Origin: Escherichia coli
Lineage (GTDB): Bacteria; Pseudomonadota; Gammaproteobacteria; Enterobacterales; Enterobacteriaceae
DNA: 64,000 nt
Reading direction: 5' to 3' (one strand)
Assembly (NCBI RefSeq): GCF_013315695.1
Contig: NZ_CP054354.1
The translations under genes were made by a program, and so were the position numbers. Below are positions 1,191 to 64,000 of this stretch, in pieces (within the stretch, counting starts at the first letter, position 1; every line of letters starts with the position of its first letter). The notes under the pieces are model-generated. The model saw only the letters and a list, made by a program, of their open reading frames with translations, was not told the DNA's origin and did no database searches.

Positions 1191-1783
1191 TGAAATCAGA
1201 CGAAAAATACCAGGTTCCCGCGTGGATGCGACCTCTGTTGCCGTTGCTCTGCAACACCGGGGGGAACGATCCGGAAGAACTGCTGAATGATACAGAAACC
1301 ACTGCCAGTGCGAATGTTGTCCGTTATGTACTGATAGTTGCTGTGCGGTCGCAGGTTGATCTGCTGCAGCTTCTGTACAGGAAAGGGCTGTTGCGCACAG
1401 AGATACCAGGTGGCTTTTCACCGGAAGAAGCGCAGGCACTCCTGGATAATCTGGTGCGCAGCCATATCAGCAAGGCGCTGTCGGGCGAGCGAATGGCAGC
1501 CCGTGACAGAAATGCCGATCTGGCCTGGATTGGACAGCAACTGGTCGATGCCGCCTGGTTTGTCCGTGCCACACTGGAAGCGCATGGGATGAGCGTCGGA
1601 AATGAGAGTCCCCCTGCTCCGCCGGAGACAATGCCGGACATACAGACACGGGAACTGGTGATGTTGATCAAGCGACTGGCATCATCGCTGAAAGCGGTGA
1701 AACCGGACAGTTGTGTGGTGCGTGAAGCGCAGGACTGGCTGCGCGACAGAAAACTTGTGGATATCACAGATATTCTCCGGTGA
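1187..1783 (+). CDS. hypothetical leading-region protein
   Basis: ORF 1154..1783; likely start ATG 1187 (MMKSDEKYQ) after GGAGA; no recognisable motif. Confidence 0.45.
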   Translation: MMKSDEKYQVPAWMRPLLPLLCNTGGNDPEELLNDTETTASANVVRYVLIVAVRSQVDLLQLLYRKGLLRTEIPGGFSPEEAQALLDNLVRSHISKALSGERMAARDRNADLAWIGQQLVDAAWFVRATLEAHGMSVGNESPPAPPETMPDIQTRELVMLIKRLASSLKAVKPDSCVVREAQDWLRDRKLVDITDILR

Positions 1784-2244
1784 ACCAGGCATGTATATTT
1801 TACGCAGGGACATGCCGGTCATGATCGTTTCGTTCCAGGGGTGGTCTGGAGATCATGCGGTGTGCTCCCTGCTCTCGCCGGAATAAGGACGTCGCCGCCG
1901 GCTCCGCTTTTACCCGGCCATGCGGGGCATGGCCTTGTGGGTTTTCAGTTATGTGGCCGCCGTGTCGTGTGCGGGCTGTGCCGTGCCTCCATCGTAGCCG
2001 GGCTTCTGCGGGCGGGATGCAAGGTAAGATGAACCGCTGCGGTCACCCGGTCCCTCCTTCCCGTCTGCCGTGATTTTCCGGTCGTTCACCCGCTCAGATT
2101 TCGCGGTCTCACCCTCCAACTCCCGCCAGCCGTGTGCGTCAGGCTGCGGCTTCCCTTGCGCCCTTGCATCCCTGCAGGCCCGGCAAAGATGGAGGCACGG
2201 CACCGCCCGGTGTCGCAGAACATGTGACTATGGAGGATTCGGGA

Positions 2245-2745
2245 ATGTCTGTTGTTGCACCTGCTGTATACGTTGGAACCTGGCACAAATACAACTGTGG
2301 AAGCATCGCTGGCCGCTGGTTTGACCTGACAACGTTTGATGATGAACGCGACTTTTTCGCCGCCTGCCGTGCCCTTCACCAGGATGAAACCGACCCGGAA
2401 CTGATGTTTCAGGATTATGAGGGATTCCCGGGGAATATGGCCTCTGAATGCCATATCAACTGGGCCTGGGTTGAAGGCTTCCGCCAGGCGCGGGATGAAG
2501 GCTGCGAAGAGGCTTATCGTCTCTGGGTGGATGATACCGGTGAGACGGATTTTGACAGCTTCCGCGATGCCTGGTGGGGCGAGGCTGACAGTGAGGAGGC
2601 TTTTGCGGTTGAGTTCGTCAGTGATACCGGCCTGCTGGCTGACGTGCCGGAGACGGTGGCGCTCTATTTTGACTATGAGGCGTATGCGCGGGATTTATTC
2701 CTGGACTCCTTCACCTTTATTGACGGTCATGTGTTCCGTCGGTGA
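2245..2745 (+). CDS. ardA: ArdA-family antirestriction protein
   Basis: MSVVAPAVYVGTWHKYNCGSIAGRWF... and C-terminal YFDYEAYARDLFLDSFTFI match ArdA hallmark motifs; acidic; start chosen at ATG 2245 after GGAGG (ORF track start 2134 is probably an N-terminal over-extension). Confidence 0.8.
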   Translation: MSVVAPAVYVGTWHKYNCGSIAGRWFDLTTFDDERDFFAACRALHQDETDPELMFQDYEGFPGNMASECHINWAWVEGFRQARDEGCEEAYRLWVDDTGETDFDSFRDAWWGEADSEEAFAVEFVSDTGLLADVPETVALYFDYEAYARDLFLDSFTFIDGHVFRR

Positions 2746-3112
2746 TTTACTCCCCGCTCCGGCGGGGGGATGGCCTGCCAGGCCCCCGGAAAACCCTGGC
2801 AGGCTTACGCCTGCCTGAAATACAGGAGGGCCGCGCCTGCGGCGCTACCCTTCCTGCCTGTCATAGTGTGAGGCATTTTTCTGTTTTGTCGTTTCTGTTG
2901 TTCTGACTCCCGGGGGCGGGGACACCCTTCGGCTCCCGGCTGCCTGGCGGCATCCGGTCGTCAGGCCCGACTCCGACAGGCAGCTGCTGGCGCACCCGCC
3001 AGTCTCCGCCGAACCCGCTGGCGCGGTTTCGGGCTGCCGCTACGGTCCGATGTCTGAAAAACCAGGCTTGCAGCGACCGTTCCGGTCGCGCCGCCTCTGT
3101 CGCGCCGTGACC

Positions 3113-16547: not shown

Positions 16548-16909
16548 TGCGATCCCAGGGAGAGTGGGTGGCTCTGGCCCGGAGGAAGTCTCTTTTCAAC
16601 TAACGTTACCAGAATATCGTTATATTCACCTGATCGCAATCTGTTCGTTACAGTCTATTGTTCCGGGAGTAGCGATATCGCCTGAAACAAGTATAATCAG
16701 CAAGTTAGCCTTGTCTGGAGACTTACCTTCGCATCAATCCATCGGGACTATGGATCTGTGCTATTCAAAGACCTGGGCGGACAAACAGGTGGTGCTGCGT
16801 CTGGTGCTCTGGCCGGAGGAAGTCTCTTTTCAGCTAACAATGAAAGAGCTGTTGTGACAGGCAATGTAAGAGTAAACAACAGTGATTTCCTCCATTGATG
16901 GAGAAACGG

Positions 16910-17005
16910 ATGATTAACCTGTTAATCATCGTTCTCAGGGCGGTTGTTGCTGTGGCTAACGCAGTGATAGCTCTCCTGGAACTGATCCGGGAACTGGTTG
17001 ACTGA
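16910..17005 (+). CDS. small hydrophobic peptide, 31 aa; candidate type I toxin (DinQ/TisB-like)
   Basis: MINLLIIVLRAVVAVANAVIALLELIRELVD; GGAG RBS lies inside the palindrome CTCCAT-TG-ATGGAG; strong terminator follows; tandem duplicate at 17594..17689. Confidence 0.4.
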   Translation: MINLLIIVLRAVVAVANAVIALLELIRELVD

Positions 17006-17026
17006 TAATCCCGGAAACGTACTTAA

Positions 17027-17056
17027 GGGCAGAGGGTCACCGCCCTCTGCCCTTTA
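17027..17056 (+). terminator. rho-independent terminator
   Basis: Perfect 10-bp stem GGGCAGAGGG / CCCTCTGCCC, loop TCACCG, then TTT. Confidence 0.65.
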
Positions 17057-17245
17057 ATAATCTACGGACAGATTACTTTCTGTACTTCCAGAGCCTGTTT
17101 CTGTGAGTCAAACATGAGCTGGTTTTTACCGACTACACCCAAGTAAATATATTCGATATCTCCCATTTGCCGTATTTTCGTAAAATTCAACAGGAAATAT
17201 TCAACGGGAGTGAGAGAACTGCTGTCCGGGGAGGAGGTACAGACG

Positions 17246-17277
17246 CAAAAAAACCGACTGGTGAGGCCGGTTTTTTT
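17246..17277. terminator. bidirectional terminator-like hairpin (copy 2)
   Basis: aaaaaaaccgactggtgaggccggttttttt. Confidence 0.5.
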
Positions 17278-17593
17278 GCGATTCCGGATCGAAGTTGGTA
17301 GCCCTGACCGGAAGATAACTGCCTATAACTGACTATGAAATAATACGGCTGAAATAATATTTCTGCAAGCACAGTATAAGTATATACTCGGTGTGTCAGC
17401 TTTGAGGCACGTTCTTTCCGGCATATCGTTCACCGGGATGAACAGGTTGCAAGTCCTGGCCAAAACATCAGGTGGTGCTGGTTTTGGTGCTCTGGCCGGA
17501 GAAGAACTGTCTATAACTGACACTATAGAAAACGTGGCGACAGGCAATGTAAGGGCAAACCACGGTGTTCTTTCTCCATTGATGGAGAAGCGG

Positions 17594-17689
17594 ATGATTA
17601 ACCTGTTAATCATCGTTCTCAGGGCGGTTGTTGCTGTGGCTAACGCAGTGATAGCAATCCTGGAACTGATCCGGGAACTGGTTGACTGA
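17594..17689 (+). CDS. small hydrophobic peptide, 31 aa; candidate type I toxin (copy 2)
   Basis: MINLLIIVLRAVVAVANAVIAILELIRELVD; same RBS palindrome and terminator; the track ORF 17393..17689 is an in-frame upstream extension. Confidence 0.4.
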   Translation: MINLLIIVLRAVVAVANAVIAILELIRELVD

Positions 17690-17710
17690 TAATCCCGGAA
17701 ACGTACTTAA

Positions 17711-17740
17711 GGGCAGAGGGTCACCGCCTTCTGCCCTTTA
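17711..17740 (+). terminator. rho-independent terminator (copy 2)
   Basis: GGGCAGAGGG-TCACCG-CCTTCTGCCC then TTT. Confidence 0.6.
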
Positions 17741-18078
17741 ACAAAATATGCTCAGGTTAAAAATCGAAAACCTTCCTGCACTTCCTGTGCCTGTTCCCGT
17801 GAGTCAAACATGAGCCGGCTTTTACCCGGAACTCCCCAGGAAATATATTCTACATCCACCCACCATTTTCCGTATTCTTCATACGGTCCGGATATCACTT
17901 TAGTGACAAATGCATCAACCAGGTTCATTTTTACACCTTTCTGTTATTCTGCTTATTACGACCAGCAGACAGCAAATATTAAAAATAACGCGGCGGTAAA
18001 AATGGCAATTTTTTTCCATGCTGTATTTTTGCCATTTATTTTCTTTGAAATGGTTTTTTTCTTCATATCAGCAAATAA

Positions 18079-20413: not shown

Positions 20414-20734
20414 TTAGTGAATATTCTTGCCTGGCCTTTCGGCAATATCAATCCCCTGAAGTTGCATGGATATCCCATGCCCATTGAGCATCTGGCTGTC
20501 CATGGAATGGATACCGCATGTCATCATCAGGTTGTAACAAAGCGTACTCAGCATGGCGAGTGCCTCTTCTGAGGATTTACAATGTGTGTTCATAAGGGCC
20601 AGAAACTGCTCAACAACATCCGGGTTAATGCTGGTACTGTGTATTTCATCCTTCATGATGTGTCCTTGTTTTTTATTATTTTGCATTTCAGAAAATAACA
20701 CGATGCCTGCAGCCCGGAAAACAGATGTGTGCAC
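20414..20734 (-). CDS. hypothetical small protein
   Basis: ORF only; likely start at the internal MKDEIHS. Confidence 0.3.
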   Translation of the reverse strand: MHTSVFRAAGIVLFSEMQNNKKQGHIMKDEIHSTSINPDVVEQFLALMNTHCKSSEEALAMLSTLCYNLMMTCGIHSMDSQMLNGHGISMQLQGIDIAERPGKNIH

Positions 20735-20985
20735 ACGTAGTCACTTTCCGGCTTTATTTCTGTCCCTGACACAAAATACGTGGTGGCATGAAAAGGATTG
20801 TGGCGGACTGGAAAACGATTAGAATAGCGGCGGGCGCTTGAGGCTGTATGCCGAAAGCGTTTTGTGGACGGCATGTAGCAGAAAGCCCCAGGCGATTTTT
20901 TTATCAATCAACCCAGGGCCCACTGTAATGCCTCAACAACATTATAGTAGCCCGATGACGGCCGAAAGGCAATGGAGGGGCTGCG

Positions 20986-21138
20986 ATGCCACAACGAACG
21001 TTTTTAATGATGTTAATCGTCGTCTGTGTGACGATACTGTGTTTTGTCTGGATGGTGAGGGATTCGCTTTGCGGATTTCGTATCGAGCAGGGAAATACGG
21101 TGCTTGTGGCAACGTTAGCCTACGAAGTTAAACGTTAA
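20986..21138 (+). CDS. hok: Hok/Gef-family type I toxin (PndA/Hok-like), 50 aa
   Basis: Not in ORF track (<60 aa). MPQRTFLMMLIVVCVTILCFVWMVRDSLCGFRIEQGNTVLVATLAYEVKR matches the Hok/PndA pattern; overlapped in another frame by ORF 20838..21131 (mok-like). Confidence 0.7.
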   Translation: MPQRTFLMMLIVVCVTILCFVWMVRDSLCGFRIEQGNTVLVATLAYEVKR

Positions 21139-21275
21139 CGGGCAACACGGCGGTAGAGAATCTGCCGCCGGATTGTTGCGAAGGCTGACCTCAATGCGCC
21201 TTGTTTGTCTTTTTTACCGGACGACTGCTGGTTGCTGCTGTCCGGCAGCTATTATTTTTTCCGTCCTGTGCGTCA

Positions 21276-22862
21276 TCAATTATGACAGTCGCTCTCATTT
21301 AGTTGTCTCTGGTTAGATGTATTATTAGATATTTTCGGGGTAATTCGATAAAAGTTATCCACTTCAGCACCAGACTGAATGATATATGCAATAAGATCTA
21401 AACGATGAATCTCGTATCGTGTACGTAACTCCATCATTTCACGCCATGCTAAAATCCTTGATGTTTTCAGTTCAGCCTCTATAAGTTTCCATGTGTTTGT
21501 TGAGATGGCATGTTCTTCCAGCTGACGTAACGAGAACCTATCACTAATGACCAACCATCCCCATCCTCGAGTATGTGCCCATTTGCGACCTGCATTACTT
21601 TTTATTCTCGTGAGACTCAAGGTCATTCGGTCTGTTGGCTTCACTTCCATAAGTAGGCACCGACCATCAACTGTCGCAATGAGTAAATCTGGATAGTATT
21701 TTTTTGATTTGTTTTTAAAACAATATGGAATAGAAAATGGTTGTTCTTGATAGAAAAGAACCTGATCGCAACATTCTAATAGATTCATTATTTTAAACTC
21801 AAGCCCTGATTCGTACTGGACTGTACGACCTAATTTTTGAGAGTAAAAGAATCCAGATATGTCAGTATCATTAACCGCTCTCTGTGAACATAGCTGTTCT
21901 ACGGGGGGAGGAGGTGCGATATATTTTGGCCAATGTGTATTGTCTAGCCATTTACTGAATATGAACTCAACTCTTTCTTTCTTGATTCGGGCTCTTTCCT
22001 GAGCGCGAGCGTGTGCTAATTCTGCTCTTCGTTCACGTAACCTCTGCTTTTGTAATTGTGATATTAATGAGAGCGAACTTTTTATTTCATCTCGTCTTGC
22101 TTTAGGAATGCCTGCGGTAAAAATAATGAATTTGGCGGCTAAGTCAGAGGATGTAACGAAATCCCGATGAACAATACGATAAATCCATACTGCTATATCA
22201 TATGGTGAATTACCTATTGAGTTAATAAGGGCTTTAAGGCAAGCTCCAGGTGTCCCTTCATAGCGAGATTTAGCAGCTAGTAAGCCAAGGGCTCGTTCCT
22301 GAAGTTGTCTTACCCTTTCACGGGAAATTCCTAATTTGACGGCAATATCTGCCAGAGAATGAGGTGAATCATCTGTGCCGAGTCGCATTAGAAGAATATA
22401 TTGATGTCGTTTATTAGATAAACTTTCGATAGCAGAATGAATTAGCATAATGACATCATGTTCATCGGCTATATAATCTTTAAAATCTGTATTGGGTTGG
22501 CAGAGGGGGAGTGGGGTATTTTGTTTAAAACTATTCTTTTGTATTTCAACTTTATCATGAGCAATTGTTTTTGCAGTGCTCAATGATATTAAATTATTGA
22601 TGATACTATTGTGTTCTTGGCGAGGAATCTTGTTGAAGTAATTGCTGAGATCATTCACCGTGTTTATATCGTTGAACTCAAGAAACTCAGAAGGAAGCAG
22701 GCGTTTGATTGCTCCACGTATTCCCCCGGACGATCGTTGATGTGTTTGAGTAAGTTTTTTTAGCGAGACGCCCTCCGCTATGGATACGAGAAGACGCTGT
22801 AACTCTTCAGTATTCCATGGAGTACCATGTCGTGCTGGAAAATTGCTGCGGGATTCAGACAT
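21276..22862 (-). CDS. sigma-70 region-4-like HTH fused to PD-(D/E)xK (TnsA-like) nuclease motif; unknown function
   Basis: 528 aa; HQYILLMRLGTDDSPHSLADIAVKLGISRERVRQLQERALGLL fits sigma-70 region 4.2; C-terminal YYPDLLIATVDGRCLLMEVKP fits PD...EVK; lies in a visibly AT-rich segment. Confidence 0.55.
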   Translation of the reverse strand: MSESRSNFPARHGTPWNTEELQRLLVSIAEGVSLKKLTQTHQRSSGGIRGAIKRLLPSEFLEFNDINTVNDLSNYFNKIPRQEHNSIINNLISLSTAKTIAHDKVEIQKNSFKQNTPLPLCQPNTDFKDYIADEHDVIMLIHSAIESLSNKRHQYILLMRLGTDDSPHSLADIAVKLGISRERVRQLQERALGLLAAKSRYEGTPGACLKALINSIGNSPYDIAVWIYRIVHRDFVTSSDLAAKFIIFTAGIPKARRDEIKSSLSLISQLQKQRLRERRAELAHARAQERARIKKERVEFIFSKWLDNTHWPKYIAPPPPVEQLCSQRAVNDTDISGFFYSQKLGRTVQYESGLEFKIMNLLECCDQVLFYQEQPFSIPYCFKNKSKKYYPDLLIATVDGRCLLMEVKPTDRMTLSLTRIKSNAGRKWAHTRGWGWLVISDRFSLRQLEEHAISTNTWKLIEAELKTSRILAWREMMELRTRYEIHRLDLIAYIIQSGAEVDNFYRITPKISNNTSNQRQLNESDCHN

Positions 22863-23876: not shown

Positions 23877-26042
23877 TTATTGTTTTATTCCGTCTTTATC
23901 ATCTCTATTAATATTTTTCAGTTTTTCTTCACGAACGCCAGGTGTTCTGCGCATATTGGTATTACCTCCGGCAATAATATCTTTGACTGAAGAAACCATA
24001 TTCCCCAGCATATTAACACCGTCACGTCCGCCCAGAAAATTAATTACATGGTCAGGCAGATAAGCCTGAAGCGCAAAAACGGCTGCAACCAGTGTGGTAC
24101 AGGCGCGGGCATAAATCATCAAAAATCCCGCCATGCTGAACACACCCGTCACAGAGTTTATCTGGACATTCATCAGTGCAGCAGCATACAGCGCATTCAG
24201 GATTGTGCCGCCGGCCACGATGGCGACTGATGCAAAAAAGAACCCGAACACCATCAGCAGCGGTCTGATCATGCTGTCTATCAGGTAGATGTAACCGTAA
24301 GCGGCTCGGCTTCCCCGGTCCTGACTTGTTCCCAGATGGGTGGCGGCCCACAGGGGGCCAGCAGCACATCCAATCAGTACGCTGACTATCCAGTTGCCGA
24401 TGCCGGTCATCCAGAAGATAAACGGGATAAACGGCAGGTAAATGGATAACGAAAAACCGGCACAAAACAGCAAAAACAGCAGGAAGTAGAGTGGTGGTGC
24501 GGATGCTTCCAGAAAAGCCTTTGCGGCGTCAGATAATCCGCTGACGGCATTGACCAGTCGACCAAAAACGGAGTTGCTGCCGGCCGTGGAAAGTACCCTG
24601 ACGGTGGTATAACCCGCCCAGATGGTTTCGGTCGTAACCATGGTGTAATCGCCAATGTTTTTCATTTTTATCAACGGATTTAGTTGATTAGTTGTGGTAC
24701 CTGTACCGCTCAGATAAGTGGCTGTCCAGTTAGTCATTCTTGTTAGGTTAAACCCAATCAATTTTAAGATTGCTGATTGAGGGTCTTGAGTTTTAGATGC
24801 GTGGTATTCACTGGCAGAGGTGGCGGTTCCCAGTGCAGGAGTATACGCTGAGTTCTGCAGCTGTGCCTGGTAAGCCCCCTTGACTTCCTTCAGGAATTCC
24901 GTATCCCCGGCTTCGCCCAGTGACGAGACGCCACTCACTGTAGGAGCACGGTCGGCCAGTTCAGCCAGTCGCTGGTTGGCGGTGGCAAAGGTCTGGTACC
25001 AGGCGCCCAGGGCAACCCAGCCGTAGGTGGTCAGGTAGGATTTCAGCTGCTCCCTGCGCTCAGTTTCTGCGTTATCTGCCGGCAACGCCTTCTGCACCGT
25101 TTCTTCATACCGGTTGGCTGCCTTCTGAATACGGCTTTCAATATCCGGCAGGTTGCCGTTACCCGTGTCGCGCCGGGTCCGGTATGCCGACACAAATTCC
25201 TGCGCCGCGCTGTCCAGGTCACGGAGCATGGTATCCATGGCGGAGCGCTGTGCCGTCAGAACCCCCTGATATTCCGTTTCAATGAAGGGATTGAAAAAAT
25301 GGGCCAGCGCGGACTGCTTGTTACTGCCGTTTCCTTTCACGGAGAGACTCACACTCCCGCAGGTGGCGCTGCCATTTGAGACGGTGACGGTATATCTGCC
25401 ATTCTCTGTCCGTGAGGATTCGCTCATGGGCGGCGTTGATGAACGTGCGGTACGGTTAAAGTCATCGAGGCCCGTATTCATGGCGTGTTTGCACAGTTCC
25501 ATCTCCAGAATTCCCCGTGCTGCCGTGCGGGTGGAGACATGTACTGGCTGTACGGTCATTGAATAGCCTTCAGCAATGTTTTCTGCCGCTGTCTGAACCA
25601 TGATATTGGCGGAACCGATGCCCATGATGGATGCGCCCCACAGCATGACCAGTTGCGCCAGACTCCAGCCGGAAGCGGTGGGCACAATCATCAAAAATCC
25701 ACTCACGACACTGAGTATGCCGACGACGTCCCGTCCGTTGTTAAAGACACTGCCCTGGTGTCCCGTGCGGACAGCATGACGGATACCAATAAACAGAAAC
25801 CAGACTATCCCCATCGTGGCGATAATTGCGTTAAACACCATGAACAGGTTGCCAATGATGGTGTTGCTGCTGGCTGTCAGGGGATTTGTGACCACATCAC
25901 CAAAAATGGTGACCAGTGCCTGGCGCGACAGGTCATCCGGATTGGTGGCGGCACTCACAATGTCCTGATAGGTGACGAAAGCCTGTGCAGGTACGGCAGC
26001 CAGCGCCAGACCTGCACTCAGTGCTCTGGGTATGATTTTCAC
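23877..26042 (-). CDS. traY: TraY-like integral membrane protein
   Basis: 721 aa; multiple TM segments; size and position as R64 TraY. Confidence 0.65.
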   Translation of the reverse strand: MKIIPRALSAGLALAAVPAQAFVTYQDIVSAATNPDDLSRQALVTIFGDVVTNPLTASSNTIIGNLFMVFNAIIATMGIVWFLFIGIRHAVRTGHQGSVFNNGRDVVGILSVVSGFLMIVPTASGWSLAQLVMLWGASIMGIGSANIMVQTAAENIAEGYSMTVQPVHVSTRTAARGILEMELCKHAMNTGLDDFNRTARSSTPPMSESSRTENGRYTVTVSNGSATCGSVSLSVKGNGSNKQSALAHFFNPFIETEYQGVLTAQRSAMDTMLRDLDSAAQEFVSAYRTRRDTGNGNLPDIESRIQKAANRYEETVQKALPADNAETERREQLKSYLTTYGWVALGAWYQTFATANQRLAELADRAPTVSGVSSLGEAGDTEFLKEVKGAYQAQLQNSAYTPALGTATSASEYHASKTQDPQSAILKLIGFNLTRMTNWTATYLSGTGTTTNQLNPLIKMKNIGDYTMVTTETIWAGYTTVRVLSTAGSNSVFGRLVNAVSGLSDAAKAFLEASAPPLYFLLFLLFCAGFSLSIYLPFIPFIFWMTGIGNWIVSVLIGCAAGPLWAATHLGTSQDRGSRAAYGYIYLIDSMIRPLLMVFGFFFASVAIVAGGTILNALYAAALMNVQINSVTGVFSMAGFLMIYARACTTLVAAVFALQAYLPDHVINFLGGRDGVNMLGNMVSSVKDIIAGGNTNMRRTPGVREEKLKNINRDDKDGIKQ

Positions 26043-63700: not shown

Positions 63701-64000
63701 TATTCAGTGGCTTTTGGGATCCTCGCGGTCCGGAAAGCCAGAAAACGGCAGAATGCGCCATAAGGCATTCAGGACGTATGGCAGAAACGACGGCAGTTTG
63801 CCGGTGCCGGAAGGCTGAAAAAAGTTTCAGAAGACCATAAAGGAAAACCCCCACTATTTTTCCTCGAACTTGGCGGAACGCAGAAAAATAATGGGGGCCT
63901 CACAGAATACGGGATAAGTATATATGAAACCGTACCAGAGATTCAACCCTGTGCAGTGTATAAATACACGGCACAATCGCTCCGCCATAAGCGACAGCTT

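Follow-up and report, generated by a model that had tools for sequence, protein, structure and literature searches.

The 64,000-nucleotide stretch of Escherichia coli DNA analysed here (NZ_CP054354.1; hereafter the window) carries a compact set of features built around a gene for a 50-residue peptide, pndA, which are listed together with their neighbours in Table 1. An earlier note on this DNA had proposed an open reading frame of this length at 20986..21138 with a clear Hok/Gef-family pattern, and both parts of the proposal hold. The translation is exactly the sequence quoted there, and residues 7-46 match Pfam HOK_GEF (PF01848) with an E value of 1.5e-12. The peptide has the family-defining size, N-terminal hydrophobic helix and conserved cysteine and LAYE signature, with C14, R25, L28, C29 and L44-A45-Y46-E47, which are invariant among five diverse Hok relatives, all present. 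The best NCBIfam match is to the HokA model (NF007290, equivalog) at 66.7 bits against a curated cut-off of 89, followed by the Hok subfamily model NF007279 at 41.5 bits against a cut-off of 73. As these scores lie below their cut-offs we rejected HokA as the identity of the gene, which shares its Pfam family with the chromosomal E. coli hokA-E genes. The sub-cut-off scores do not take it out of the Hok family, membership of which rests on the Pfam and Rfam matches and on identity to pnd. A PADLOC search gave no match for the PndA toxin.

Table 1. Positions of the pnd elements and of neighbouring features, counted from the first base of the window
Feature	Position	Strand	Details
dqlB copies	16910..17005, 17594..17689	+	DqlB MINLLIIVLRAVVAVANAVIALLELIRELVD; second copy with L22I
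AgrB antisense RNA	17245..17332	-	Rfam, 47.7 bits against a gathering score of 40; between the dqlB copies
pnd mRNA promoter	20798..20825	+	-35 TTGTGG 20798-20803, 16-nt spacer, -10 TAGAAT 20820-20825; read from sequence
Full-length pnd mRNA (predicted)	20832..21201	+	5' end placed at Rfam model position 1, 3' end at last fold-back base
hok-type mRNA leader	20832..20988	+	Rfam RF01794, full length 1-157, ends at toxin ATG
5' element GGGCGCUUGAGG (tac equivalent)	20832..20843	+	Predicted to pair with 21190-21201, P 0.91; invariant in pnd copies
PndB antisense RNA (predicted)	20880..20937	-	~58-61 nt; ends approximate, uncertain by ~3 nt
Antisense target hairpin in mRNA	20922..20948	+	9-bp stem, 9-nt loop CCUCAACAA at 20931-20939
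pndC, mok-like frame	20928..21131	+	67 codons from conserved ATG; mechanically open from 20838
Antisense (pndB) promoter	20944..20972	-	-35 TTGCCT 20972-20967, 17-nt spacer, -10 TACTAT 20949-20944
pndA Shine-Dalgarno GGAGG	20974..20978	+	7 nt 5' of ATG; read from sequence; invariant in pnd copies
pndA toxin gene	20986..21138	+	50 aa; ORF listing, Pfam HOK_GEF
GC-rich 10-bp hairpin	21148..21170	+	Just past pndA stop; fold prediction
3' element CCUCAAUGCGCCU (fbi equivalent)	21189..21201	+	3' partner of the fold-back; U-rich tract after
Convergent 528-aa protein	21276..22862	-	Sigma-70 region-4-like helix-turn-helix ~aa 132-200; TnsA-endonuclease-N-like domain aa 332-440

Exact-sequence look-up identified the toxin as UniProt PNDA1_ECOLX ("Protein PndA"); the same peptide is also named "Hok/Gef family protein" and occurs on at least 1000 contigs. 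The gene had been called unannotated, which is true of the ORF track then in use but not of public plasmid records, where it appears as 'Hok/Gef family protein' or 'protein PndA'. The literature refers to the locus as pndACB or pndBCA. The alignment to Hok and PndA sequences that had been suggested as a check also identified the coding sequence as R16 pndA. In this comparison, which covers the toxin coding sequence, 153/153 bases are identical to the 'PndA_R16' coding sequence in the supplement of bioRxiv 10.1101/2025.08.07.668861, and R16 (IncB) has a plasmid background likewise of the IncI1/B/O type. By its coding sequence the allele is of R16 (IncB) type and not of R64/R483 type, because the R483/R64 (IncI1) toxin differs from that of the window at four residues (V13I, F31L, I33L, E34Q).

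The complete cassette is contained in 20791..21201. Homology between the window and R64 runs over exactly 20791..21200 (24805..25215 of the R64 locus, L002) at 89.8% DNA identity, and similarity with most other pnd copies also begins at 20791 and stops at 21200. With these common borders the cassette behaves as a discrete module of ~410 bp; between plasmid backbones, similarity ends right past the 3' element. The two loci share the same architecture, with the sense -10 box, the antisense promoter, the pndC ATG and the fold-back described below all common to both. No IS insertion and no frameshift interrupt the cassette in the window, and more than 100 plasmids carry it at 100% identity. The surrounding 601 bp (20700..21300) are 100% identical in many conjugative plasmids of E. 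coli and Shigella, in which the coding sequence is annotated Hok/Gef. A partial pnd-like fragment with 78% identity and no annotated gene was also observed on the IncF plasmid NZ_CP062813.1 (L003, 1501..1721), where it adjoins a match to the ALIL pseudoknot (Rfam RF01497); it is probably a decayed pnd copy.

The 24 kb around the locus are 99.5% identical to pMB9108_2, a plasmid typed as IncI1/B/O. In order, the genes are nikB, trbC, trbB, trbA, two dqlB copies, nuc, several hypothetical genes, pndA, the 528-residue gene, excA and traY, which places the cassette in the trbA-excA interval of an IncI-type transfer region, the location characteristic of the pnd subfamily. The statement in the earlier note that R64 carries pnd in the equivalent region proved correct, a Hok/Gef gene lying between trbA and excA in that plasmid. 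The position within this interval varies, however: the R64 cassette abuts trbA, whereas that of the window lies ~4.6 kb away, beside the 528-residue gene. At the end of the window we observed a PK-repZ pseudoknot (RF01087, 188.9 bits; 63840..63988, plus strand), which confirms an IncI-complex replicon through its replication control region.

Two of the neighbours deserve comment. About 3.5 kb upstream of pnd lies a second type I toxin system, consisting of two copies of the DinQ-like, 31-residue DqlB within a direct repeat of 82-83% identity (~16786-17179 and 17451-17880). Downstream, the convergent 528-residue protein scored far under the cut-off with every NCBIfam model and gave only a weak SspB match in PADLOC (E 5.6e-4). 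[quoted passage not shown]

Both promoters of the cassette were located by eye and by positional conservation, as a consensus promoter scan with a threshold of 9/12 finds neither the sense nor the antisense one. The sense -10 box is invariant in pnd copies and the TTGT of the -35 box is kept in four of five; in the IncF and IncHI2 relatives a TATTAT or TATAAT box lies equally far from the start of the leader. That the sense promoter falls under the scan threshold fits a weak promoter. Seven nucleotides past the TAGAAT box, at position 1 of the Rfam model, begins a match to RF01794 of 124.7 bits (gathering score 59, E = 2.4e-29), the only one in the 64-kb window. It places a hok-type leader upstream of the toxin and on the toxin strand, as in other members of the family. 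RF01794 is named 'sok' antitoxin, yet its matches in the window and in 6/9 other loci lie on the toxin strand and end at or close to the toxin start codon, the remaining 3/9 scanned giving no match. What the model describes is therefore the mRNA leader of hok, and a match to it points to the wrong strand for the antitoxin RNA. Three substitutions distinguish the leader hairpin 20843-20879 of the window from that of R64 copies (GGCAUGUAGC versus GGUAUACAGC, facing the invariant GCUGUAUGCC), and pairing is kept at all of them. This agrees with what a covariation analysis of hok-family mRNAs, attributed to Gultyaev, Franch and Gerdes in 1997, is said to have found.

In hok mRNAs the 5' end folds back on the 3' end, and partial complementarity of this kind had been claimed for the window. 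The minimum free energy (MFE) fold of 20832..21204 bears this out, pairing 20832-20842 with 21201-21190, some 50 nt beyond the toxin stop, through 11 predicted pairs interrupted by one bulged U (21195), at a mean pairing probability of 0.91. Both strings quoted in support are present, displaced by 2-3 nt: GGCGCTTGAGGCTG lies at 20833..20846 instead of about 20831..20844, and GCTGACCTCAATGCGCC at 21184..21200 instead of about 21181..21197. The whole molecule folds with a z-score of -5.7 against dinucleotide shuffles. To compare the helix between loci we read the pairs from duplex predictions for four distinct sequence types. In the window GGGCGCUUGAGG faces CCUCAA(U)GCGCCU, in the IncF srnB-like locus (L007) GGGUGUCUG faces CAGACACCC, and in the IncHI2 locus (L009) GGUGCUGG faces UCGGCACC. 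The pnd pairs C4-G, C6-G and U7-A become U-A, U-A and C-G in the IncF locus, both-sided changes that keep the helix, and the pairing is also kept in the IncHI2 relative. The tac-fbi long-range pairing typical of the family is thus also predicted here. The idea that a small ORF and a few complementarities arose by chance in an intergenic region draws on the small size of the ORF and on nothing else, and is refuted by the Pfam and Rfam E values, the fold z-score and the exact identity to a described gene; we consider its probability negligible.

In the predicted full-length mRNA G20978-G20980, at the end of and just past the Shine-Dalgarno sequence, are paired with 21119-21121. When 21173-21204 is removed, the 5' end and the target region are predicted to fold differently: in the 3'-shortened mRNA, or in the leader alone, nucleotides 20833-20861 at the 5' end form a local hairpin, and 20862-20881 become the partner of the target region. 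This local hairpin may be the equivalent of the metastable 5' hairpin described in the literature. The Rfam consensus structure imposed on the leader has an energy of -41.0 kcal/mol compared to -59.1 for the MFE fold, so that the minimised fold differs from the published active fold. As energy minimisation does not reproduce the latter, the refolding step of the mechanism is taken from the literature. The GC-rich hairpin just past the pndA stop has a comparable counterpart after the stop in the IncF and IncHI2 relatives and, by analogy with R1 hok, would mark where the processed, active mRNA is expected to end; it may act there to halt processing. A strict terminator-like hairpin of nine pairs (21229..21251) followed by a T-run (21229..21261, plus strand) was also observed ~30 nt past the fold-back, beyond the border of the conserved cassette, and pnd transcripts that read through may in fact end there in this backbone.

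A second reading frame overlaps the toxin gene. The earlier note had compared the ORF at 20838..21131 with mok, and a plus-strand frame of 97 residues is indeed open there in another frame than the toxin, but its TTG at 20838 did not stand as the start. This codon is not conserved, and R64-type copies have an in-frame stop just downstream, so we rejected it. The ATG at 20928, in contrast, is conserved and lies inside the antisense target, which is why we place pndC as given in Table 1. In 5/5 pnd copies, of both subtypes, this ATG is found at leader position 97/98, and the frame that follows is open until 7 nt short of the toxin stop. The putative pndC frame would thus begin in the antisense target hairpin and cross the toxin start, as the overlapping frames of the family do. 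A Pfam scan of the 97-residue frame returned no significant family, including no match to DUF5431/Mok, the former being the name given to the overlapping frame in the IncHI2 relative. The case for pndC is therefore made by conservation of the frame and its ATG and not by protein homology.

The antitoxin is expected on the opposite strand. A search for a Sok-like promoter on the minus strand, which had been suggested for 20900..20990, located a site at 20972..20944, and a TTGNNN-17/18-TANNNT arrangement is found at the equal leader position (111-115) in 8/8 loci from three hok subfamilies, although the hexamers differ. The RNA expected from this promoter, PndB, is predicted to consist of a single-stranded 5' tail of 13-15 nt, a 15-bp hairpin and the U-rich GGGGCUUUCU as its 3' end. 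It folds at -24.9 kcal/mol (z -3.3 to -3.7), and the hairpin is terminator-like. A change from G-U to U-A in one stem pair separates the window and R64 copies. It is compensatory for the antisense RNA, whereas the sense strand would have an A·C mismatch at this site in the window copy. The leader thus appears to hold an antisense gene with its own promoter and terminator hairpin. The predicted PndB is complementary to the target hairpin, whose stem includes the pndC ATG and whose loop contains the YUNR motif CUCA (20932-20935). It spans the pndC ATG and stops short of the pndA Shine-Dalgarno sequence and the pndA ATG, which fits indirect control of the toxin through pndC.

The recognition loop of this hairpin (20931..20939) exists in two forms, with CCUCAAC in the window and CUUCGAC in R64. 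The R16-type GCCUCAACAAC and the R64-type GCUUCGACAAC differ at two bases (alignment A1, columns 150-158), and both keep the YUNR motif. It is possible that the difference affects cross-neutralisation between alleles. The Klebsiella michiganensis plasmid pPIMR (L004) has an R16-type loop in an otherwise R64-type cassette. This plasmid also shows three matches to the hok leader within 1.3 kb (1542..1663, 1669..1826 and 2652..2800), with one shortened leader copy directly upstream of the functional pnd leader, in place of the usual -35 region, and two AgrB matches nearby.

We conclude that the locus is almost certainly pnd (pndA/pndB/pndC), a type I toxin-antitoxin cassette of the Hok/Sok family, represented here by its R16 (IncB) allele and located between trbA and excA on an IncB/O-type conjugative plasmid. 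Its logic is that of R1 hok/sok/mok and of the hok loci of IncF and IncHI2 plasmids, which likewise encode a membrane toxin of ~50 residues behind a leader matching the same Rfam model and share the leader position of the antisense promoter, the covarying fold-back and the GC hairpin past the stop. Their toxins, however, are only 38-48% identical to PndA of the window, and between the overlapping frame of the window and Mok/DUF5431 no similarity was detectable at the protein level. We found no separate long overlapping frame in the IncF srnB-like relative.

For the mechanism we rely on published studies of R1 hok/sok and R483 pnd, and our analysis addressed the presence of the sequence elements it calls for; both promoters, both frames, the antisense hairpin, the target loop and the fold-back are seen at the level of sequence and prediction. 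The weak sense promoter would produce a stable mRNA of ~370 nt, which, with its 5' end paired to its 3' end, would permit neither translation nor binding of the antisense RNA. Slow trimming from the 3' end would take off the 3' partner, whereupon the leader would refold and expose the target hairpin and the pndC start. The stronger promoter on the opposite strand would meanwhile supply the short, unstable PndB RNA, which would pair with the pndC ribosome-binding region and block translation of pndC and hence the coupled translation of pndA, the duplex then being cleaved and degraded. On loss of the plasmid PndB would decay first, the stored mRNA would be translated, and the 50-residue membrane peptide PndA would kill the cell. 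The inert full-length mRNA, its activation by 3' trimming, the block by PndB, the cleavage of the duplex and the faster decay of PndB in plasmid-free cells all follow the R1 hok/sok and R483 pnd literature (Nielsen et al. 1991; Nielsen and Gerdes 1995, as cited in later work).

Published phenotypes bear on this mechanism in both directions. The native pnd locus of R483 brings about post-segregational killing, and R64 was rapidly lost once its pnd had been inactivated, as summarised in PMC4083329 citing Furuya and Komano 1996. Neutralised pndBCA was sufficient for curing an IncI1 plasmid (PMC5330492). The R16 PndA coding sequence, placed in an expression vector, yielded either no clones or mutated ones only, and this failure to clone intact a sequence identical to that of the window suggests that it is toxic. 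Deletion of pndACB from pCT, on the other hand, left stability, conjugation and fitness unchanged (PMC4083329); one of the recombineering primers used for pCT matches 20887..20926 of the window exactly and the other corresponds to 21156..21195 with three end mismatches. Deletion of pnd alone had no effect in pESBL either.

These silent knock-outs in pCT and pESBL could be read as the mark of an inactive relic, recognisable as a member of the family but no longer able to kill, in the manner of many chromosomal hok loci; those of E. coli are described as mostly failing to mediate post-segregational killing. In addition, one earlier study using tagged constructs saw no lysis by R483 PndA. A decayed locus would, however, be hard to reconcile with two promoters, a Shine-Dalgarno sequence, two frames, a fold-back and an antisense hairpin that are all intact and in register, with the lack of insertions and frameshifts, with the complete conservation across more than 100 plasmids or with the seeming toxicity of the identical R16 coding sequence in cloning. 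We therefore regard loss of function as very improbable.

The same deletions, which cost pCT and pESBL no stability, also raise the question of whether the intact cassette is selected mainly for something other than vertical stabilisation, such as abortive infection of phages, displacement of other plasmids or a function linked to transfer. Its constant location inside the transfer region, between trbA and excA and next to a second type I toxin system, could be seen in the same light, as could the exclusion of phage T4 by R1 hok/sok that Pecota and Wood reportedly observed in 1996. Yet pnd of R483 and R64 does stabilise plasmids, and the partition systems and efficient conjugation of pCT and pESBL can hide an effect of post-segregational killing. 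Nor did PADLOC give a match for the toxin, and the sequence offers no sign of a different trigger. We consider such a role unlikely, though less so than a loss of function. Because the pCT and pESBL deletions cost no stability, one may put it more specifically for IncB/O/K plasmids and suppose that they keep the cassette as a phage abortive-infection or plasmid-competition device, which we hold to be equally unlikely. If it were true, the two-base difference in the antisense loop would make the R16-type and R64-type alleles mutually non-neutralising.

With post-segregational killing by a functional pnd cassette as the preferred reading, the locus is real, already known and ordinary, and the earlier reading of this DNA is supported with the corrections given above. 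The pnd genes have been described since the 1980s-90s and are as a rule named as the addiction system of resistance plasmids of the IncI complex. What we add is limited to window coordinates for the unannotated pndB, pndC, tac and fbi elements and to a corrected start for the mok-like frame. The value of these lies in annotation, as gene callers and ORF tracks miss a toxin of 50 codons and never report pndB or pndC, and the coordinates are transferable to hundreds of identical plasmid copies. The cassette is also of relevance where plasmids are to be cured by supplying the antisense RNA (PMC5330492).
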